DNA of 62,633 nt, filler included, from Stramenopiles sp. TOSAG23-6 (lineage: Eukaryota), in the NCBI GenBank assembly GCA_900128565.1. It is 16 parts of 16 records of this genome, joined end to end, with 100 filler letters (N's around TTAATTAATTAA, not from the genome) between each part and the next. Parts side by side here need not be neighbours in the genome. Positions count along the whole stretch, not along the records: positions 43,211 to 47,018 come from LT637366.1; 15 more parts are not named here. One strand, written 5' to 3'. This document shows, in pieces, positions 1,687 to 58,732 of this stretch; position 1 is the first letter of the stretch, and every line of letters begins with the position of its first letter. The position numbers were made by a program, and so were the translations under genes. Below the pieces are notes generated by a model. It made no database searches. It saw nothing but the letters and a program-made list of their open reading frames with translations, and had not been told where the DNA came from.

Positions 1687-3363
1687 ATGGATTCTATGTC
1701 ATCTGATACGGCTGCAGGTGTTTGTTCAAGGCGTGAAGTTCAACTCTTCAAAGAAGCTTTTCTGCACTGTTCCAATGGCAAGAAATGGTTATCTTTTGAC
1801 TCTTTTGCTTTAGCTGTTGGAATTCCGATTCCACAAAATATATGCAAAACGAGTAATTTTATACATGCTTTATATCGTCTATACTCTGTAGATAGGTTAG
1901 GTCAGAAAATGGACACCACAGGCTTCGTAAAATGTATGGTACAGTTGGCATCAGGCAATAGACAATCCAAAATGAAACTTTTATTTGAGTTAGCCGACGT
2001 GGATAATGATAAACGTGTTCGAGTGAGTGAACTACTTGATCTTATCCGTGGAATGAAAGTATTATTCACATCACTTGATGGCCAAGAAAGTTCTATAGAT
2101 GATGAAATTTTACAAGAAGTAGTTCAAAAACTATTTCTAACATGTCCTAGTGACAAATCAAAATCAACTAATTCAAAAAATAATGGTAACTCAAAAAATA
2201 ATCAAAAAAAAAGTATCACTTTACCTGAATTTCAACGTGCATTATCAGAAAATGATGGTGTTTTAGAAGCAGCTCTTTCATTCAATTCAACATCTTCTGA
2301 TGAATGCTTCTCTACTCTAGACCGAGTTAATGTTTTAAATACAAAAGTAAACGAAATTCTTGAACATTTTTCTAACCCTAACCCTAGGGTTAATCTTGAA
2401 CAATCTTCAGTTAATGCTACAAAATTGACGTCAATCGATACCCCTAACCCTACCATAATAAAACACAATGAAATGAACAGTACAACAACAAATAGTATGA
2501 ATGAAGAGAATTGTCTTCGAGGATTGATATTATCAAAAAGAATTTCATTAGAGTTAAAATCATTACAACATGATTTATATAAAATTTTAGAATATAACCC
2601 TAACCCTAGAAGGAAAAATAACCCTAACCCTAGAAGGAAAAATAACCCTAACCCTAGAAACCCTAGAAGAAAAAAATGGAATTATCTTTGTGATGGAAAT
2701 ATTTTTCAAATGATACCAAAAATTTCTGGAGATTTTGAAGAAATTGAAAATCCAAAATTACGAACATTATACTTACAAGCAGAAAATGAAAGATTACGTG
2801 TACGTTTTTTTTGTCACATTTTTTTTTTTCATAGTAAAATTTTTCATAGTAAAATTTGTACCTAACGAAAAAAAAAAAAAAAAAAAAAAAATTTTTCAAT
2901 TTTTTTTTCATAGTAAAATTTGTACCTAAAAAAAAAAAAAAAAAATTTCTTCAATTTTTTCACAGTACATAAATTAATCAAACAATATGAAAAAAATCAT
3001 ACCATTTATTCAGAAAACCCTAACCCTAATGTAATTCATTCGATGATAAGTCAATATCGTGTTTATAGTACCGAATTAAATCAACAATGTGATATAAATG
3101 ATTATAGTGAAAACACTGATAATTTGTACTTACGACCTTTGCATACGTATGTTCTATTTATATTTTTTTTTTGAGATTTTTTGTATTTTGAAAATTTTTT
3201 TTTTTTTGAGATTTTTTTTTTTTTGAGAATTTTTTTTTTTTTTTAGAATTTTTTTTTTTTTGAATTTTTTTTTCGTACAAAATTTTGTCCCTAACAAAAA
3301 ATTTTAGATTTTTTTTTAATATTTTTCTACAATATAGTATCCTCATCATTCTCCAATGGATGA
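1687..3363 (+). CDS. EF-hand (calcineurin B/recoverin-like) domain protein, partial; introns 2800-2970 (GT-AT) and 3147-3337 (GT-AG)
   Basis: KMKLLFELADVDNDKRVRVSEL EF-hand motif; frame is kept across both introns. Confidence 0.75.
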
Positions 3364-3407: not shown

Positions 3408-3840
3408 TCATCCATTGGAGAATGATGAGGATACTATATTGTAGAAAAATATTAAAAAAAAATCTAAAATTTTTTGTTAGGGACAAAATTTTGTACGAAA
3501 AAAAAATTCAAAAAAAAAAAAATTCTAAAAAAAAAAAAAAATTCTCAAAAAAAAAAAAATCTCAAAAAAAAAAAAATTTTCAAAATACAAAAAATCTCAA
3601 AAAAAAAATATAAATAGAACATACGTATGCAAAGGTCGTAAGTACAAATTATCAGTGTTTTCACTATAATCATTTATATCACATTGTTGATTTAATTCGG
3701 TACTATAAACACGATATTGACTTATCATCGAATGAATTACATTAGGGTTAGGGTTTTCTGAATAAATGGTATGATTTTTTTCATATTGTTTGATTAATTT
3801 ATGTACTGTGAAAAAATTGAAGAAATTTTTTTTTTTTTTT
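3408..3840. repeat. Exact inverted copy of ~2932-3363 across an N gap (scaffolding artefact)
   Basis: Perfect reverse complement on each side of the N run; identical ORFs in both orientations. Confidence 0.85.
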
Positions 3841-15854: not shown

Positions 15855-17401
15855 CTGCTCCATTTGTACTTGACAATTTTGATAAATGTCCCGCAGTTTC
15901 TTCTAAATTCAAAGCATCAATTCCATATTTTTGTAAAGTTGTCTGAAATCCTTGTTTTGCTTCTTCGATTTCAGATTTTGATAATATATCTGGAATGACT
16001 AAAACACCATCTCGTTTGAATGTATTAATTTGTTCAATTGTGAGAAATCGTAAATTTTTTTTTTTCGTTACATTAGGGTTAGGGTTTATTTTTTTTTTCA
16101 AATTGTTCGTTACATTAGGGTTAGGGTTTATTTTTTTTTTCAAATTCTTCGTTAAAATCTCGATTTTTTTATGAATATCAGGTAAAGGTATAGAAATATC
16201 ATCATTTGTTTGTGTAGTAGGGTTAGGGTTATATTCAATATTTTTAGTTTTTAAATTTTTAGTTTTTAAATTTTTAGTTTTTAAATTTTTAGTTTTTTCT
16301 TGAAGTTTTAAAAGTCGTTTTTGTCGTCTAAATTCTTTTAATGGTAATCTTGTAGTACCTAAAGAAGATTTCGTGTGTAGTTCCTTTGAACGACTAGGGT
16401 TAGGGTTATTTTTTTTTGAACTATAGTTTGTATTTTCATGTTTTAAAATGTCATTTAATACTCTCAATATTTCTGCATTTGGTTCATTCTTTCCATTATA
16501 TCTGGAATGAACAAATAATATCTCTGAAGAATTAGGGTTAGGGTTTTGAATATTTGTAAGAACGTTTCGGAATCGAATCAACGTAAATGCATTTTTATCT
16601 CTTCCAAACATTTGACATGTATTGTAAAAAAAATTAAATTCGAAATCGGTTAGGTACAAAATTTCGTACGAAAAAAAATAAATTTGAAATTCATAATGAA
16701 AACGTACTTCATAATGAAAACGTACGAGATTCTTCTAGAAAATTTGCATTTTTATATACTATATTGTACAAGAATATTTCAAATTTGAAATTGGTTTAGT
16801 AAACACATCAAAAAATAAAAAAATAATATCAAAAAATATATGATTTGTATAAAGTATGGAGAAAAAAATATATGAAAAAATGAGACATACACTCATGGGC
16901 AGGAATCATCATACCTAAAGAGTCCAAGACAATGTCATCATAATTGTTAGCACTACAAAAATTGATCACTATGCGTAACAAACGCTTTGCTATACCTTGT
17001 CGTCTATATGACCGTTTTACACACATATGTTTAAGCTCTGCTGTACTTTGGACTTGTTTTTCTTGAACTTGTCTATTTGCGTTTGGGGGGTTTTGTTTCA
17101 TTACCGCACAACAACCGATAATCACTTCACCATCCGACTCATTTACGACAGCAACCCAAAATGAATTACAAGATACATCAATAAATCGACGTATTACTGT
17201 AGAAGCAGATGCAAGGTCAAGTTTTAGCTGTCTTTTTACGAATTTTATTATTGAAGTGTTACCGTCACTAATGTCTAACATTGATTTTGCAAATAGTTCC
17301 CGTACGCCAACGATATCCTCAATAGCAAAAGGACGAAACGAAACGGGTACAGAATTATCGCATATACCATTCGCTGGACTATTTTCTTTTGAAACTATCA
17401 T
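15855..17401 (-). CDS. GNAT acetyltransferase joined to a PhyH-like dioxygenase N-terminus, partial; introns 16759-16890 (GT-AG) and 16617-16725 (GT-AT)
   Basis: AELKHMCV..YRRQGIAKRL, spliced AHELYKNANF; downstream FLTIEQINTFKRDGVLVIPDILS. Confidence 0.7.
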
Positions 17402-25185: not shown

Positions 25186-25679
25186 GATGTGCACTCAAAG
25201 GGATAATATATGTATACCAAGGCGAATAGACTCAAAATAATAAGATGTGTCTATAAAGGCTCATTGTACGATAAATAAATCTAGCAAATTCTCCTTAAAA
25301 CTCTGTTATTTATCACAATACTCTGCTATAGACTAATAAAATGTCGCTTGTCAGGACAACCGACAACCGACAACGGATGTTCAAAAACAGTTACAAAAAA
25401 AAAATGAAATTAAAATTTTCGTCGTTCATGTGAAAGCTTGAACAGATAAATTAAAAAATTTTAATGAACTCTCATATATCATATTTATAGGCTATTTATA
25501 GTAAGCAAAATAAAATTCCATCAAATCTTGTAAAAATAAAGAAATCGAGGATTTAGACCATCTGATCTTATTCTAGGATATTATATACTAAAAAAATATT
25601 TTTCGAGAAAATTAATGTACGTTTTCATTAATAATTTAAAATTGTTTTTTTTTCGTACGAAATTTTGTACCTAACAAAT

Positions 25680-42229: not shown

Positions 42230-43110
42230 TTTTTCACAATATATGTAGAGAACTTACGTTGTGGACTGATTTATCCGTTGTGTTTTTATATGGAAATAAA
42301 GAAGCAAGAGAAATTTTTAAAAATGAAGAAATTACAAAAAAAGGAAAAACATTAATACCAAAATTTGATGTATTAATCACAACATATATATGTTTTATTT
42401 TTTTTTTTTACAAAAAAATCGAATTTATTTTTTTTTTATAGTAAATTTTGTACCTAACAAAAACAAAATTAAAAAAAAATATTTTTTCACAACATATGAA
42501 GTATGTATCAAAGAGGAAGAATTTTTATTACATTTTAATTGGAATGTTGTTGTAGTGGATGAAGCTCATCGATTAAAGAATAGAAATAGTCGTTTAGCAT
42601 GTACGTTCTTATTTATTTCATACGGAATTTTGTACCTAAAGAAAAATGGATTTTTTTTTTTTAAATTTTTTTTACAAAAATTTCAAATCTAACAAAAAAA
42701 AAAAAAAATTTTTAAAAATGAAATATTCCATGACAATACATTGACTATGGATAATCTGTCCTATAATTCATGTGTACTTCTTACAGGTACGCCTGTTCAA
42801 AATAATATGTCTGAATTACAATCATTATTATCTTTTATTGATGTACACAAATTTGGTGAAAATGTAAGTTTTATTTTTTTGAAAATTTGAATTTTTTTTT
42901 CGTACGAAAGTTTGTACCTAACATTTTTTTTTTTTTTTTTTTAAATATTTTTCCAAAATATATGGTTCAATTGATTTTGATGCTGAATTTGGAGAAATTT
43001 CATCAGGAAATGTCAAACAATGTCAAAAACTACAAAAATTATTAAGGAAATATATGTATGTTTTATTTTTTTTTTTACAAAAAAATCGATTTTTTTTTCG
43101 TACGAAATTT
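42075..43110 (+). CDS. SNF2/CHD-type helicase fragment; introns 42085-42244, 42388-42497, 42601-42741, 42864-42963, and one starting at 43056
   Basis: [30 protein letters not shown]. Confidence 0.9.
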
Positions 43111-44860: not shown

Positions 44861-45069
44861 TTCAGACTTATTTTATTCCTATGTCAAGTAGTAAAACGAT
44901 TTAAAAATAAGTTTCATTTATTGTTTTGATGCATCTTTAGCATATCTCAGGATTTTAATTTTTTTTTTATAGTAAATTTTGTACCTAAACAAATTTTTGA
45001 TTTTTTTTTATCTCAGGATTTCAGGTAAAAATAAATTGTTAGTTACATAATTTGGAACATGAAAAACAT

Positions 45070-46738
45070 CTATACCCATTCTTTTGGTTTACCTTGAAGT
45101 AAATCCAATGTTTTTTTTTCTGGACTATCCAACTCAGGAATATTTTTATACTCATAACGGACAGTAAGTGGAAGTGACATTAATACTGCTTCAATATCAA
45201 CACCAGGTACATGTATTTTGAAAAAATATTTCAAAAAAAAATTTGAAAAAATTGTTAGGTACAAAATTTCGTACGAAAAAAAANAAAAAAATTCGNAANT
45301 NAAAAAAAAATAAAACATACAGCATATCCAAATTTCGTACCTCGATCATATACCAAGTTAAATTCAACATACCGACCATGCCTTAATGCTTGCCATTCTT
45401 TTTCTTTAGTAGTGTATGGCATATTCATTCGTTTTAATAAAATAGGCCAATAACAAGGAACAAAAGCTTTTACACAATCTTGTACAAACGATAAAGATGA
45501 TGATTGTAGAGTTTGTTCATTTGGTGTAAGTAGTGTGAAACGATATTTTAAATTCGAAATTCGTTAGGTACAAAATTTCGTACGAAAAAAAAATAAATTT
45601 GAAATTCATGATGGAAACGTACAATTCTACTAGAATCATCTCGATGTGAAAGAAACGAAAGTGCACTATTTACTTTTTCATTATTTGTATTATTATTTAC
45701 TTTTTCATTATTTGTATTATTATTTGTTGTAACTGTATTCGTTTGTGATTTATATTGGTGAATATTCGTGAAATCGTCAAAAAATATTCCTCCAATGCCT
45801 CTCGCTTCTGCTCTTGCTTTGTTATAAAAATGTATTTTGGAAAAATATTTCAAAAAAAATTCAAAAAAAATTGTTAGGTACAAAATTTTGTAAGAAAAAA
45901 AAAAAAAATTAAAACATACATATGTATCACAATCAGTTTTCATTATTGAGTATCGACTTTTAGTACTATTGTCATTTTTATCATGTTTATCACAGACATT
46001 TTTTAACGTTTTATGAAAATGTTTTGCATCGTCTTCAAATAAATAAATCGGAGTTAAATCAGTTCCTCCTCCAAACCACCAAGAAACAACTTCATCATCA
46101 TCATCTGTTATTTCAAAATATCTATAATTAAAATGTACAGTGGGTGCCATTGGATTGACTGGATGTAATATCCCACTTAACCCACACACCCACATTTGTA
46201 AATTAGGGTCACTTTCATGGCTAGGTTGTGTATTACAAGTTTGCTCTTTCTTTTCTACCTTTTTATCCATTTTTCGCTTTTGAAGTTTTTCGCGCAACTG
46301 AGGATGATTTGCAGACATTTGTCGAATAATTGCTGGTGTAAGTGAGCGTGTCATGACTGTGAGACCAACTCCAGCTTTTTCAAAAACTCGACCATCTTGT
46401 AAAACTGCAGTTAACTTGAGAGCTCGTTTAGACGATTTATCACGGCGCCATGTTACAATTTTCGTATCATCTGGAGCAGCAATAGACGCAGCTTTATCTT
46501 CTAATGAAGCAACACGATTGCATATATCGTGCTGTACCTGTACTAGTGTATTAATCATGGCTCTACGTGTGCTATTATTTCGAGATAAGTCGTTGCCTCC
46601 AAGAAAGTCTGACAATGTTGACGTATCGTCAGGGAGTGCAGGCGCACTACAACTACAATTGTCTGAATATTGACTTGTTGCATATATAGAGACGCCAGCA
46701 ATAGCTGACGATGCAAATAACATACATCTTGAAGTCAT
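45070..46738 (-). CDS. CPOX: Oxygen-dependent coproporphyrinogen III oxidase (divergent); introns 45830-45919 (GT-AT), 45528-45622 (GT-TT), 45211-45320 (GT-AT)
   Basis: [63 protein letters not shown]. Confidence 0.9.
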
Positions 46739-47184
46739 CGCTGGTGTATTGTGTTTCACTTTTTGGTGGTTGTAGAATAGTAGATATCGAAAGTTATATC
46801 ATATAATATGTTTCTTTTGGCTAAGAGCGAAGCGTCCAGAAGTACTAGGGACTTTCCACTAGAGATTTTTTTTTTCTTTGTAGCCCTAACCCTAGGCTTG
46901 TCGTTTTGTGGTACCCGGTTCCATCGGTTCGCTCGCAATATTTGAATTTGCAAAAAGGTGAACAGTGAGCAGTGAGCGAAATAGTGAACATTGAGCGAAA
47001 AATGGATAAAAAGGTAGANNNNNNNNNNNNNNNNNNNNNNNNNNNNNNNNNNNNNNNNNNNNTTAATTAATTAANNNNNNNNNNNNNNNNNNNNNNNNNN
47101 NNNNNNNNNNNNNNNNNNGTTAGGTACAAAATTTCGTATGAAAAATAAATTCGATTTTTTTGTTAAAAAAAAAAATAAAACGTA

Positions 47185-49396: not shown

Positions 49397-50814
49397 GTTG
49401 TTGCTGTAATGAGTTTCTTAACTAGATGCCAATGCCCTCGTGAACAATATGAAATACTTTCCGTGATTCTGAAAACAATTCATCCCAATAACCCTAACCC
49501 TAGTGTACGTTTCGTTTTTTCCATACGAATTTTTATAATTTTTATAATTTTTTTTTTTTTTTTATTTTTTTTAAAATTTTTTTTTTTAATTTATTTTTTT
49601 TTATTGTCAGAAAATTTCGTACCTCACAACAAATTTATAATCATCAGAGCTTTTGAAATATTTTCCTACAATACAAAATAATAAACAAAATAATACTCAA
49701 AAACAAAAAATGTCTACGCCTAATTTAAGTGATTCATCTATATGCAATCATAAACTACTTCGACTATGTAAAAGTTTAGTTGGTGTGATTTGTACAATTC
49801 AAGATAAGCAAACTCATGCACGTTTTCAAAATTGAATTTCAAATTTATCTTTTTTTTTTTATAGTAAATTCTGTACCTAACGAATTTTGACTACATTTTT
49901 TTTTTCACAATATAGGAGAGAATTCAAATGGATGAAATGAATATTCGAAATAGATTGTCTTCAATGGATCTTTTATTTTCTTCTCAACCTGTGCAAATAC
50001 GTGATTCTAACCCTAACCCTACGTCTCTTTATAATAAAAACGACTCAAATATGAAAAATAATAATTCAAAAATGAAATATGATTTACATATATCAAGTAA
50101 TATATTACATGTGAAAAATAATTCAAATAATTCAACTGATACGTCTACTATAAAGAATAATGTATGTTTTATTTTTTTTTATTTACCGAAAAAAAAAAAT
50201 CGATTTTTTTTTTTTTTTTCATAGTAAATTTCATACCTAACAAATCTTTAATTTTTTTTTTTGAAATATTTTTACAAAATACATGTAAGTGGTATCGACA
50301 TTTTACTGTTTTTATTGAAATCACCTGCTGCAGAAGTTAGACATATGTATGTTTTATTTTTTTTTTTTTGTATGAATTTTTTTTTTTTGGTTTCGTACGA
50401 AATTTTGTACCTAACAATTTTTTTAGAATTTTTTTTGAAATATTTTTTCACAATACATGAAAAGTCTTAAACAATCCAAAGAATTAAGTCTTGCATTACT
50501 TAAAAAGAAACAAAATGATGATGCAATATCAAGTGGCCATACTACAGAAGGTTTTGAAAAAGCAAAAGAAGGGTTGCAGAAACAAGTTGAAAAACTTCAA
50601 CAAGAAAATAATAAAAGAGAGGCTGCAGATTTTCAAAAATTACAAAAGTCTCAAGAAATGTTAAAAAATGAATTACAAACACGAAATCAAATTCTGGGAC
50701 AACTACATCAATTATCTGCATCATTAAACAAATTACATTATAGACAAGCAGCAAAAGAAGTAAGCTGGACATTGTCTAAAGGTGAGCATCATTTTACAGA
50801 AGGAGAGGATCCAT
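49397..50814 (+). CDS. Exons of one or two unrelated soluble proteins (possibly BEACH-protein-like and coiled-coil)
   Basis: Short in-frame exons separated by family introns 49505-49676, 49818-49915, 50162-50284, 50347-50458; not transporter-like. Confidence 0.45.
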
Positions 50815-54929: not shown

Positions 54930-57900
54930 ATGTATTTTGGAAAAATATTTGAAAAAAAATCTTAAAAAATTTGTTAGGTACAAAATTTTTTTACCAAAAA
55001 AAAAAAAAAATAAAACATACATGCAAATGAAACAAAATATGTAAACGGCGGGATCGCAAATCCATATAATATAAATACTAAAATCACAGATTGAAGACTT
55101 TTGTCACTCGTTCTAACATATGCATCCATTTCAAATAAAAGTAGAATAATCAAACTTAAAATAAAAGGTAAGAGAAAAATACAAAAATCCCAAATGTAAT
55201 TGGATAACCAATATGTATATACATTAATTCCAGAAACAAGTTGTAAATGTTTTGATTTTTGTTGCCTCTCTCGAACGATATGAACACAAAATTGCGCAGG
55301 GACAAATGCAAAGCCGAGAGAGATAAAAATTGAAGCAAATAAACCTTGAATTCCTCCAATGATTTATTTTGGAAAAATATTTCAAAAATTTTCTAAAAAA
55401 AAATTGTTAGGTACAAAATTTTTTTACCAAAAAAAAAAAAAATCGATTTTTTTGTTAAAAAAAAAAAAATAAAACATACATTGTTTGTTCGGGTAAAGTT
55501 AGAGGAAGAGGGTAATTGTTGACACGTATCATTGGTATTTCATCTTTGCTATGACTCAATTTCGTTGCGGATATCCAACGCAATACTGAATTAGATAATG
55601 TATTCAATGCAAGTGGGGCTCCATGTATTGCAGTGTAATTATGTATTAGTGTTGCTCTAGTTACAGATATTATACTTGTTTGATTATTTTTAAATCCTGT
55701 ATTTGACAAAATTCGTGATGCAAATTCTTTTGAATTGATTTCAGCATCAGGTAACCAAAGTCCAATATATCTAGAACTAGCCTGATTATTTCTAGATGCT
55801 TCAAAATAATCAACAATATTCTGTAATCGATTTTTTTCAGTTATATTATTTCGTTGTGTATCAAATGGTGGGAGGAAGGAGGTGACATCAATAGGTTCAA
55901 GACGTTCTTTTTCCAGAGATTTTGAAGATAAAAAACCAAACCCTTTCAAATGTTTTACTAATAAAGATATTGTACTAGATGTTGATGAACTACAAGAAAC
56001 ACCATCACCAACATAATCATCAATACATTTACATTGATTTTCTTTTTGTTTTTCCATAGATGAGTCACAATTGGCTAATACACTACAAAATCCCATGCCA
56101 CACTTTTTTCCAGAATGTCCAACGTTATCACGATAATTAAGAGCTCCCATATCTTTTGTATCAGGAATATGAGGAAGTTGAGGAAAAAGACCACTTTTTG
56201 ATAAGACACTTTCCCAATCAAATGGAATATTATTCATGAATGATTGAAATAAATCCAATTCTGATTTTGCTGAAATTGCTACTTGATCGTTATACGATAA
56301 TCTTTTTTCATATCTAAATCTACTTTCCGAAATAAAAGGTACAATATTTCTCATATCTCTCTGCCCTGAATTCATAAATTCCATGGTAATAGGTATAGAA
56401 TGTATTGTAGAAAAATATTTCAAAAAAAAATCTAAATTTTTTTGTTTTTTTTGTTAGGTACAAAATTTTTATAAAAAAAAAAAATCCATAGTAAAAAAAA
56501 AAAAAAAAAAAAACATACATGCGACTGTGGGGAAGGAGATGTTATCAATGCAATCATAGCTAGTAATACAAACAATGCGGGTAGTAACGCTGTAGTTGAG
56601 ATAGCTCTATAATCGCGAATGAAATAAATAATTCTTTTATGAAGTAAAGCTTTCAGATTTGAACTAAACGTCGTCGGTTTCGTTGGAACAGAACCTCCAT
56701 ACGATACACAATTATTTGAAGTAGTAGAACTCTGTGACATGTCTGTCGTGTTTAGAATAGTTTTCGACTGTGGAATGTGTTTGTGTAAAACAGTAGTGAT
56801 ATCATCATCATTATCATCATATGGATCATTATCATATAGATCATTATTATTAAACAGTAATGAAATGGCTGATGCTTTTGCTACCTCCGAAGATATTGAT
56901 GCAGATATATTTTCTTTTGGTTGATGTCGATTCGATTTTGTATTTTTTGTATTTTTTGTATTTATGTTTTGATTTGATTTTGTATTTGTATTTATGTTTC
57001 GAGTAGACTTTGGATTTATTTTGTTTTTTGTATTTTTTGTATTTGTATTTATGTTTCGAGTAGACTTTGGATTTATTTTGTTTTTTTCCGACGTACATCT
57101 AGAATGATCTATATTACTTTTTTTTTTTTTTTTTTGTACCAAATTCCGTACCTAAATGACCACACGTCATTGTATGGTTAATATTTCCACTATTTCCAAC
57201 TTTTAAAAATACTTCTTCTAATGTAGTTACAGATAATCCAAAATTTAAAATTCCTAATTTGTCTTTTTTTGTATTTATTTCCATTAATAATTCCTCAAAA
57301 CAATTTGAGAATTCAAATGGGAGATGAAAACTAATTTCAGCACCAATATTTGATAATAATGAAGCCTCTGGGCAATACGTATAAATCAAATCGCTAATCA
57401 TTGATGTTTTGGTTTCATCATTTCCATCATTTCCATCATTTTCATCATTTCCATCATTATAATGAGTAATACTAGTACAATCATGATCAATATTTTTTAT
57501 TTGTAGTGATTTTTCAAAAAATATTTGATACCCACAGCCATACATTTTTTTCAAAAATAATGAAGAACCAACACAACTTAATTGTCCATCAGACATGATC
57601 GCAATACGATCTCCCAACAAATCAGCTTCATCTAAAAAATGAGTTGTCAAAACAATGACTTTGCCTTGGCGATGTTTTTTTATCACAAGTATTGTGAAAA
57701 AATATTTTTATTTTTTTTTATTTTTTTTGTTAGGTACAAAATTTACTACGAAAAAAAAAAATTCATACAAAAAAAAATAAAACATACATCCCACGTAAAA
57801 CGTCTCGAATATGGATCCATCCCGCTTGTTGGTTCATCAAGTATAACCACTTTTGAATCGCCTAGTAATGCATGTATTTTGAAAAAATATTTAAAAAAAA

Positions 57901-58732
57901 AACCCTAAAATTTGTTAGGTACAAAATTTTCAAAAAAAAAATTTCGAATTTGAAAAAAAATGTTAGGTACAAAATTTCGTACGAAAAAAATTTCGATTTT
58001 TTTGTTAAAAAAAAAATTAAAACATACAATAGCTAAAGAAAGTTTTCGTTTCATTCCACCAGATAAATTATTTATATACGAATTTGTTTTAGCAGTTAAA
58101 CCAACTTCTGCTAATATTGTTGTACATGCTTCATTGAGTATTGATGCGTCATCTGAGATGTTTTTTAATACTGCAAAAATTTGTAAATGTTCCATGTATT
58201 TTGGAAAAATATTTGAAAAAAAAAAACGTTAGGTACAAAATTTCGTACGAAAAAAAAATCATACAAAAAAAATTAAAACATACATACAAGTAAGATCTGG
58301 CCATAAAACATTATTTTGAGGACAATAACCAATATTTTTTCGAATGTGTTTCATATCATCTAATACATCGGTACCTAACATTAAAACTTCACCTAGAGTT
58401 GGCGGGAAAATTCCTGTCAAAATATTTAATGTTGTTGATTTTCCTGCGCCATTATGACCTAATAAAGCAGTGATTTGTCCTTCATACATTTTGAGATTGA
58501 GATTATTTACAGCTGTTTTTGTTCCATTTGTCGTATCAAATTCCTTGACAAGATTTTTAATTTGTATACATCGATCTTGTCTCGCTAACTGAACTAAATC
58601 ATTTCCAACAGACTCTTCTACTGTTTTATATATATGTATTTTGGAAAAATATTTAAAAAAAAATTTGAAATTTTTTTGTTAGGTACAAAATTTCGTATGA
58701 AAAAAATATTTTGGAAAAATATTTAAAAAAAA
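54930..58732 (-). CDS. ABC transporter subfamily A, internal fragment; introns 58194-58283, 57872-58027, 57687-57787, 56400-56518, 55362-55479, 54930-55020
   Basis: [70 protein letters not shown]. Confidence 0.93.

Follow-up and report, generated by a model that had tools for sequence, protein, structure and literature searches.

In almost every eukaryote, introns terminate in AG, and the reason is still debated. Documented large-scale exceptions are few and, in the portions of the reports available to us, comprise the larvacean Fritillaria (PMC13326754), Amoebophrya (PMC7789003), the minor introns of Physarum (bioRxiv 10.1101/2020.10.12.336362) and the euglenozoans (PMC6221363). Intron families that arise from copying elements, some with non-canonical ends, are an already known kind. 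The introners of Micromonas and Aureococcus carry one splice site, and a repeat at the border can supply the other (PMC11282704, in its accessible sections). Here, we describe an intron family in a 62,633-nucleotide stretch of DNA (the window) from Stramenopiles sp. TOSAG23-6 (assembly GCA_900128565.1), focusing on a 90-nt intron of a coproporphyrinogen oxidase gene (positions 45830-45919, minus strand) that had been flagged in an earlier note on this DNA. This focal intron is likely to be a member of a very abundant short-intron family of common descent, that is, an introner-like family; our judgment covers jointly the introner-like character of the family, its cutting at GT..ACAT, the involvement of a U2-kind spliceosome and the copying of the intron as a unit. 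In our literature search, which is weak on subscription journals, uniform GT..AT ends were not described for any protist intron family, and no paper paired GT-AT introns with introners.

The focal intron reads acatAT|GTATGTTTTAATTTTTTTTTTTTTTCTTACAAAATTTTGTACCTAACAATTTTTTTTGAATTTTTTTTGAAATATTTTTCCAAAATACAT|ttttataac on the minus strand, and its borders and inner blocks are acatAT|GTATGTTTTAATTTT...TTTTGTACCTAACAA...GAAATATTTTTCCAAAATACAT|ttttataac. Its host gene encodes coproporphyrinogen oxidase (relatives in PF01218; matches to PDB 1tk1, 1txn and 2aex), which the intron, GTATGT...ACAT, interrupts in phase 0 between Tyr273 and Phe274. If it were not removed, the 90 bases would insert 30 residues precisely where the yeast oxidase has none. 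Cutting out exactly 90 bases after the exon that ends in ...CDTY yields a gap-free alignment with the yeast oxidase and 12 homologues, and the predicted GT...AT joint reads ...GATACATAT^TTTTATAAC.... The intron starts with the 5' splice-site-like hexamer GTATGT (45914-45919, minus strand), which follows an exon AT and is shared by 17 of the 38 complete family members, while GTACGT is found in 12. The conserved core TTTGTACCTAAC with a branch-site-like CTAAC lies ~44 nt from the 3' end (45873-45884, minus strand), and the 22-nt family tail GAAATATTTTTCCAAAATACAT (45830-45851, minus strand) ends in the putative AT acceptor. The intron contains no internal AG, and use of the next AG downstream would remove conserved residues and break the frame.

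The family comprises at least 44 copies in the window. The window consists of ~3.8-kb parts in descending size, separated by linkers (N44-TTAATTAATTAA-N44 at ~3841, 7778, 11714 ... 58733), and adjoining parts are not linked. The family set contains 38 complete introns, curated by eye from regular-expression matches, and six donors that are truncated by contig ends. The inverted duplicate at 3624 of the copy at 3147, the A-starting intron at 42388-42497 and copies with a 3' end only were dropped before counting, as were the copies at 25617, 49505, 520, ~8860 and ~7100, which are unclear or untranslated. The 3' ends of three introns (45622, 61007 and 57787) were set by frame alone. The 12-mer TTTGTACCTAAC has 49 matches with at most one mismatch (0.35 expected in the window), and the 22-nt tail has 27 matches with at most three mismatches, nine of them exact (0.01 expected). 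The interior block AACAAAAAAATCGAATTT has 18 matches, some of which are palindromic double counts, against an expectation of 0.14. In a MAFFT alignment, the modules follow the order of head, optional AACAAAAAAATCGA block, T-run, TTTCGTACGAAATTTTGTACCTAAC core, T-run and tail, and the mean identity to the consensus is 0.87 for the head, 0.86 for the core and 0.81 for the tail. Two subfamilies are distinguished by linked 5' and 3' variants (GTATGTTTTA...CCAAAATACAT and GTNCGTTTTCA...CACAATACAT). The conservation of interior blocks that have no known splicing role indicates a copied element and extends beyond a strict splice consensus. Thus, the family shows what is expected of introners, with many near-identical copies in unrelated genes and a similarity that reaches past the splice signals. 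The introns vary in size from 89 to 223 nt, and six of them have duplicated cores. A double intron at 28236-28438 (minus strand) has two heads and two cores but one tail, and the rare GTTTGT start common to both halves points to a local tandem duplication rather than a nested insertion.

The abundance of the family extends beyond the window. In the DNA run X1, 7203 of 119,919 contigs match the 1.7-kb stretch with the focal intron at 90% identity or more, and in the seawater run X3, 5359 of 6,561,904 contigs do so, in both cases nearly all on two intron stretches, as assigned from depth bins and the listed pieces. Furthermore, 30 contig ends adjoin linkers, and at least eight of these lie inside a family intron, which shows that it is the family that fragments the assembly.

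Where exactly are these introns cut? Four junctions can be fixed exactly by homology, namely those of oxidase introns 1 (the focal intron) and 3 and those of two introns in an ABCA-type transporter gene. At the focal copy, AT stands on both sides, and GT..AT, TG..CA and AT..AC cuts therefore yield an identical product. In oxidase intron 3 (45211-45320, minus strand; gct|GTATGT...ATACAT|gta), the exon ends in CT, so an AT..AC cut is not equivalent there; the GT..AT product FGYA|VPGV is gap-free in the homologue alignment, and the nearest relative, P0001, reads FGFAVPGV. The ABCA intron at 57872-58027 (minus strand; att|GTATGT...ATACAT|gca, with a duplicated core) lies between an upstream exon that stops at ABCA4 residue 1074 and a downstream exon that starts at residue 1075 (LAI|ALLG). 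For the other family intron of the same gene, 90 nt in length (58194-58283, minus strand), the EH of LTxxEH opens the exon, with an alignment that starts from ABCA4 residue 1022. As judged from these alignments, GT..AT, or a 1-base slide of it where T or G repeats, is the sole predicted cut that fits all homology-pinned junctions. The intron at 16725-16617 (ctc|GT..AT|gtc) exemplifies copies without a flanking border repeat, as do those at 45320-45211 and 58027-57872. In contrast to these, the dropped intron of a SNF2 helicase gene (42388-42497, plus strand), which starts with ATATGT and thus has A at +1, carries a 10-nt direct repeat CACAACATAT over both borders (42378-42497) at a conserved LITTY|E site, and its cut site is ambiguous across these 10 nt.

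The reading frames lead to the same cut. With GT..AT ends, the longest upstream and downstream frames are joined in 28 of the 32 introns that are flanked on either side by 25 or more open codons (29 with one tie), against a chance level of 1/3 (p 3e-10), and the family intron lengths modulo 3 are distributed as 13/12/13, which means that the introns cannot be read through. Removal of the copies thus restores the protein at the four homology-exact junctions and the frame in 28 of 32 cases, as for introners. The first two bases are GT in 37 and GC in one of the 38 complete introns, and the last two are AT in 32, AG in four and TT in two; C occupies position -3 in 33 introns and A position -4 in 35. 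Because the AG-ending copies are otherwise ordinary family members, the last base is seemingly T or G. The family introns also match a U2-type intron in their 5' site and interior, with GTAYGT starts in 29 of 38, a CTAAN motif 24-55 nt from the end and 57% pyrimidine downstream of it, but not at the 3' end, where a U2-type intron has the AG that is rare here.

The exon context is equally biased. The dinucleotides before the 44 donors are AT in 29 cases, GT in five, TT in five, CT in two, and AC, TC and AG in one each, so that T occupies the last exon position in 41. The frequency of AT compares with 10.3% before GT in 30 long open reading frames (ORFs) (p ~1e-18). Likewise, G opens the next exon in 25 of 37 cases, compared with a background of 18%. 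The exon-end AT bias and the G that opens the next exon define a junction context of (A)T|G at both borders. Most of the descriptive claims of the earlier note are borne out by these observations. The copies form one intron family, with GTAYGT, the CTAAC motif and the T-rich tract conserved and with sense orientation in genes; removal of the element plus one AT restores the gene, given the gap-free oxidase junction; and the exon ends are biased to AT rather than AG. The typical copy, which the note gave as AT-[GTAT..ATAC]-AT, stands in part: AT lies at both borders in 22 of the 38 complete copies, whereas GTAT..ATAC, found in 14, is a plurality and not a rule.

We propose that each copy would bring its own splice signals, that is, a GTAYGT 5' end, the conserved block TTTTGTACCTAAC, a T-rich tract and a terminal ACAT. 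CTAAC, within this 13-nt block, would be the likely branch site, located 24-55 nt upstream of the intron end. The transcript would be cut ahead of GT and past ACAT, with AT as the acceptor dinucleotide and with G tolerated at the last position, and the reaction could fall to a major (U2)-kind spliceosome that, in this host, has a relaxed or re-specified choice of the 3' site. New copies would arise when the whole intron unit is copied into sites that read (A)T|G, and sense copies alone would survive in coding DNA because only sense copies would be spliced out. No RNA junction was recovered, and we infer RNA-level removal as well as the spliceosome type, the branch site and the mode of spread. 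More tentatively, the host may be an unsampled marine protist that obtained most of its introns from one self-copying family and whose major spliceosome uses ACAT as the default 3' splice site, and its U2 branch box has possibly co-evolved to pair with UACCUAAC.

Several points weigh against splicing at ACAT. To our knowledge, ordinary spliceosomes do not accept a terminal AT. No small nuclear RNA gene was found in the window by Rfam at gathering thresholds. In two metatranscriptome runs compared with positions 45302-47018, there is no spliced RNA joint among the 15 joints listed of 305, and one RNA-derived contig (X8 record 17) extends 19 letters into oxidase intron 3 in unspliced form, although this is below the 31 letters that are required to bridge a border. 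In addition, the frame test misses in four of 32 introns (49129, which is the tie, 61007, 60615 and 815), and the intron list itself is an eye-curated selection of regular-expression matches that includes three frame-only 3' ends. The other metatranscriptome contigs on the oxidase stretch are exon-internal (X8 record 19 and X9 record 32), and the RNA-run data neither support nor refute splicing; the intron/exon ratios of depth bins are not usable as measures of copy number or expression.

How did the copies spread? Two routes fit the AT|G context. The first, which is possible but has the odds against it and would be compatible with splicing at ACAT, is that a non-autonomous DNA transposon of the form GTAT...ATAC inserts at AT and duplicates it, so that the downstream AT becomes the acceptor. 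Such an element would account for AT before 29 of the 44 donors and at the end of 32 of the 38 introns, and ATGTAT/ATACAT forms a perfect 6-bp inverted pair in the focal copy. Moreover, a partial copy with a 5' end and core but no tail (25617-25700, plus strand), which lies between two minus-strand genes and is antisense to both, also follows AT, at a place where selection for splicing is unexpected. A parallel is provided by Physarum, for whose U12-type introns TA-flanked inverted termini have been proposed (bioRxiv 10.1101/2020.10.12.336362, in the part available).

However, the hallmarks of a transposon are mostly faint. The earlier note had labeled the introns as derived from miniature inverted-repeat transposable elements, whose terminal inverted repeats are of ~10 bp or more; the inverted termini here measure only 3-6 bp, and the label is not supported. 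The 4-bp version (bases +1 to +4 against -6 to -3) is present in only 14 of 38 copies and the 6-bp version, which includes the exon AT, in 10. The T/C variation at +4 is uncompensated at -6, where C at +4 is paired with A in 13 copies and with G in one, and the end pairing is thus not maintained. The DNA fold of the focal intron is no better than that of shuffled sequences. As to the proposal of the same note that an AT-targeting element supplied the acceptor, the agreement of an exon end with the end of the intron that follows it averages 1.61 nt and is not above that of shuffled pairings (1.52, sd 0.07), 14% of which reach the observed value. The AT could accordingly reflect a fixed 2-bp duplication, a target that is preferred but not duplicated or a requirement of splicing; AT is also its own reverse complement, which makes a duplication and an inverted repeat indistinguishable. 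The exon end is not AT in 15 of 44 cases, yet the intron end is mostly still AT. The borders of the repeat unit are exactly those of the splice unit; beside the 44 sense copies in genes, only two non-genic copies, both of them fragments, are seen in this gene-dense window. The search for a transposase that the earlier note had suggested found no Pfam transposase, integrase or reverse transcriptase domain in 73 of the 83 window ORFs of at least 110 aa; the 10 ORFs left out mostly span N-runs or are duplicate frames, and one is the oxidase ORF.

The second route, which we regard as somewhat less probable than a DNA transposon, is spread through RNA, in which an excised intron reverse-splices into transcripts at junction-like AT|G sites, is reverse-transcribed and recombines into the gene. 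This route would explain why the unit boundaries are the splice boundaries in every copy, why the orientation in genes is strictly sense, why no copy-specific duplication is present and why the AT|G at insertion sites resembles the context of the junctions at both ends. It does not predict the antisense intergenic partial copy at 25617, and the 73 scanned ORFs also contain no reverse transcriptase domain. Moreover, we know of no organism in which spread by reverse splicing has been demonstrated at scale. The other non-genic fragment, a core-only 54-nt piece (44944-45021, plus strand), lies between the convergent PTPS and oxidase genes and has a 12-nt direct repeat ATCTCAGGATTT on both sides. 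This duplication, unlike the borders of the intron copies, hints at a second insertion route, for example, break repair.

Sites without the intron would be informative in this context. No empty site at the oxidase intron 1 locus is seen in the X1 and X3 contigs. The nearest oxidase relatives, P0001 and P0121 (52% identity by BLASTP, 61% over the tree columns), are uninterrupted ORFs at all three oxidase intron sites, but they are possibly transcript-derived. Metagenomes scanned for the nearest oxidase relative at the DNA level yielded 23 loci at 30-45% identity (one short fragment at 76%). Of these, 22 form a single uninterrupted tblastn match; they are mostly GC-rich and probably bacterial, and hence uninformative on intron positions in eukaryotes.

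Readings other than removal by a U2-kind spliceosome at ACAT fare worse. The copies are unlikely to be U12-type or AT-AC introns, whose real cut would fall before the exon-side AT and after ...ATAC. This cut is sequence-equivalent in 24 of the 38 complete copies, in which the exon ends in AT, and CCTAAC resembles the U12 branch consensus CCTTAAC; in addition, GT-AT is listed among Physarum's non-canonical introns of the U12 type (17% of 1,014) in the available part of that study (bioRxiv 10.1101/2020.10.12.336362). The AT..AC cut is nevertheless impossible in the remaining 14 copies, in which the exon end is not AT, and two such cases, LAI|ALLG of ABCA and FGYA|VPGV of the oxidase, fit GT..AT by homology. 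A U12-type intron combines an RTATCCTT 5' site with TCCTTAAC near the 3' end, whereas the family has GTATGT or GTACGT, without the U12 TATCC motif, and CCTAAC at a distance of 24-55 nt from the end, with a T-rich tract behind it. This class is thus disfavored by the 5' motif, by the branch distance and by the exons that do not end in AT.

Marginally less probable is a non-spliceosomal excision that is guided by pairing of the intron ends, as for the nonconventional introns of euglenids. The ends can form AUGUAU/AUACAU, which juxtaposes the cut sites with a 2-nt offset in the minimum free energy structure, and direct repeats are present at the borders. Such introns are reported, in the accessible sections, from euglenids and from marine diplonemids, in the latter case on the basis of single-cell genomes (PMC6221363, PMC12621601). 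Nonconventional introns are recognized by the lack of a U1-type 5' consensus and by stable end pairing, and the family has neither trait. GT starts 37 of 38 introns, within an extended GTAYGT that is absent from nonconventional introns as far as the consulted part of the source describes them (PMC6221363). The focal intron and its flanks fold as RNA with -5.9 kcal/mol (z +0.6), a stability that is equaled by 140 of 200 shuffles. No compensatory change links the two ends, and the pairing that includes the exon AT is available in only 10 of 38 copies. The 5' consensus speaks against an excision of the euglenid type, as does the absence of stable pairing.

Removal at the DNA level, similar to that of the AT/TA-bounded internal eliminated sequences of ciliates, is highly improbable, and the earlier note also favored splicing. 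A direct repeat of 1-2 nt (T or AT) at most borders would allow precise excision, and the sole RNA-library contig near a border, the one below the bridging rule, is unspliced. The eliminated sequences of ciliates are, however, absent from the DNA of the expressing nucleus and independent of strand. Here, the 45919/45920 border is spanned by X1 record 8, with 57 intron letters, and by X3 record 16, with 42, which places the intron, joined to its exon, in genomic DNA in two studies. The 45829/45830 border is reached by X3 record 14 only, with 26 intron letters, which is below the bridging rule. The X1 contig depth of the intron-exon join is the same as that of the exon (54.7), and no DNA joint from 45920 to 45829 is found among the 15 joints listed of 305. 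The sense orientation of 44 of 44 copies and the conservation of the strand-specific signals GTAYGT, CTAAC and T-tract further favor RNA splicing over DNA excision. The least probable reading, that these are ordinary old introns that resemble one another only through very strict splice signals and T-rich filler, draws on the low-complexity T/A nature of much of the intron but is contradicted by conservation over the whole unit, including blocks without a known splice role, by subfamilies with linked end variants, by thousands of contigs that match ~60 nt at 90% identity or more and by assembly breaks inside copies.

The host is AT-rich in this window (GC 0.22-0.39 per 2 kb, ~30% overall). The contig that carries the focal intron is found in DNA runs, in a separate study's seawater metagenomes and, with small shares, in marine metatranscriptomes, indicating that the host is marine and occurs in nature. 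In a quick IQ-TREE analysis of 48 rows, hand-picked from 120 listed matches plus five cluster members, the oxidase falls in a clade with metagenome and MMETSP proteins and Chlorarachnion reptans (SH-aLRT 100, 11 rows), apart from animals, including hemichordates, and from fungi. The closest relatives in protein searches have 52-63% identity, and relatives with species names have 33-48%. A WRAP73-like ORF has 63% identity to its nearest protein, P0132, and 42-46% to named proteins from many supergroups. The alignment of P0132 to window positions 26573-27385 ends at residue 243 of 281, while the window ORF continues, and P0132 may carry an intron where the host genome has none. A larvacean origin, first suspected from the 3' AT and from the YAY triplets known from Fritillaria, was dropped because the oxidase lies outside the animal clade, which makes a tunicate origin unlikely. 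A diplonemid origin was also considered, but no diplonemid is among the best 120 matches of either protein search. On the basis of these comparisons, we provisionally treat the host as an unsampled marine protist and not as a larvacean.

The remainder of the oxidase gene, all on the minus strand, consists of exon 1 (45920-46738; 273 codons from ATG), exon 2 (45623-45829), exon 3 (45321-45527) and exon 4 with the stop codon (45070-45210), the last three placed by homologue alignment. Intron 2 (45528-45622) belongs to the second subfamily (GTACGTTTCCA...); its 3' end, CTACTT, derives from the reading frame only, and its junction falls within an unalignable insert. The N-rich insert of exon 2 (45690-45760) is lineage-specific and absent from all of the 12 aligned homologues; it includes a 33-nt repeat in tandem (NNNTNNEKV twice).

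The window has two further peculiarities. The telomere-like 13-mer AACCCTAACCCTA has 31 matches with at most one mismatch across the window (0.02 expected), for example, at 110-122, 2596-2656, 16074-16545, 29360-29894 and 50009-50021. Where it falls in coding sequence, it is mostly sense and in the open frame AAC-CCT-AAC-CCT, which encodes NPNP with invariant codons; this looks as if two TTAGGG units had been inserted into genes at the DNA level and not as if a peptide had been selected. Family introns contain the 13-mer as well (473-506 and 39653). Inverted duplications are found at 3147-3337/3434-3624 around an N gap and at 46254-46278/46994-47018 at a contig end (25-nt arms), and X1 and X3 coverage is absent across 46810-47018. 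These duplications look like fold-back chimeras, as from whole-genome amplification, and the ends of the affected contigs are therefore not to be trusted.

If confirmed by RNA, the family would represent a natural experiment on a copying element that imposes a new acceptor on the spliceosome and would be equally informative on intron gain at the genome scale. If ACAT indeed serves as the default 3' splice site, the uniform GT..AT introns would make recognition of the last base testable (first-last base pair, U2AF1). Nearly every gene of this host would be mis-annotated by gene finders and by introner surveys built on AG or AC ends.

The family resembles the introners of Micromonas pusilla and Aureococcus anophagefferens, which, in the accessible sections, are short introns that recur in near-identical form in unrelated genes, by the hundreds to thousands and with a sense bias (PMC11282704, PMC12130899). 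Those introners differ in having GT/GC-AG ends, a clear target duplication of at least 3 bp, terminal inverted repeats and confirmation by RNA (PMC11282704), whereas the present family has an AT acceptor and inverted ends of 3-6 bp and shows neither a copy-specific duplication nor, in the runs compared, a spliced RNA joint. The introner survey pipeline, as described in the part available, counts only AG and AC as familiar 3' ends, and a GT..AT family would therefore be inspected by hand and dropped without RNA support (PMC12130899). The U12-type introns of Physarum polycephalum are similar in being a mass of introns with short inverted-repeat splice motifs flanked by a 2-bp direct repeat and in tolerating non-AG 3' ends, among which GT-AT is listed as a rare U12 variant. 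According to the same available part, they have RTATCYTT and, 10-12 nt before the end, the branch motif TTTGA, and are spliced by the minor spliceosome (bioRxiv 10.1101/2020.10.12.336362), in contrast to the GTAYGT, the CTAAC 24-55 nt upstream, the T-rich tract and the marine host observed here.

Amoebophrya, another marine protist, has more than 60% non-canonical introns and repeated introns with direct repeats over the borders. Its elements, as far as the consulted sections describe them, have inverted repeats of 8-20 nt that form hairpins and no preferred terminal dinucleotides, in a coding sequence of 54-58% GC (PMC7789003), whereas the present family has uniform GT..AT ends and no stable hairpin at ~30% GC. 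The nonconventional introns of euglenids and diplonemids share non-AG ends, border repeats, end pairing and a proposed origin from miniature inverted-repeat elements, but they lack a U1-complementary 5' end and need stable end pairing, neither of which is true here (PMC6221363, PMC4770533, PMC12621601, in the parts available). In diplonemids, such introns were likewise predicted from fragmentary single-cell genomes without RNA (PMC12621601, same limitation). The family also resembles the introns of Fritillaria borealis and F. pellucida, in which AT is the commonest 3' end (34% and 44%, respectively). There, a YAY triplet stands ahead of the 5' site and also makes up the final three bases, the U-rich tract is retained, a transposon origin is proposed and the 5' ends are mostly AG (PMC13326754, in its accessible portion). 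The introns described here start with GT instead, and YAY ends 31 of 38 but precedes only 15 of 38. If ACAT is the default 3' splice site of this host, the family would be an independent and cleaner parallel to Fritillaria.

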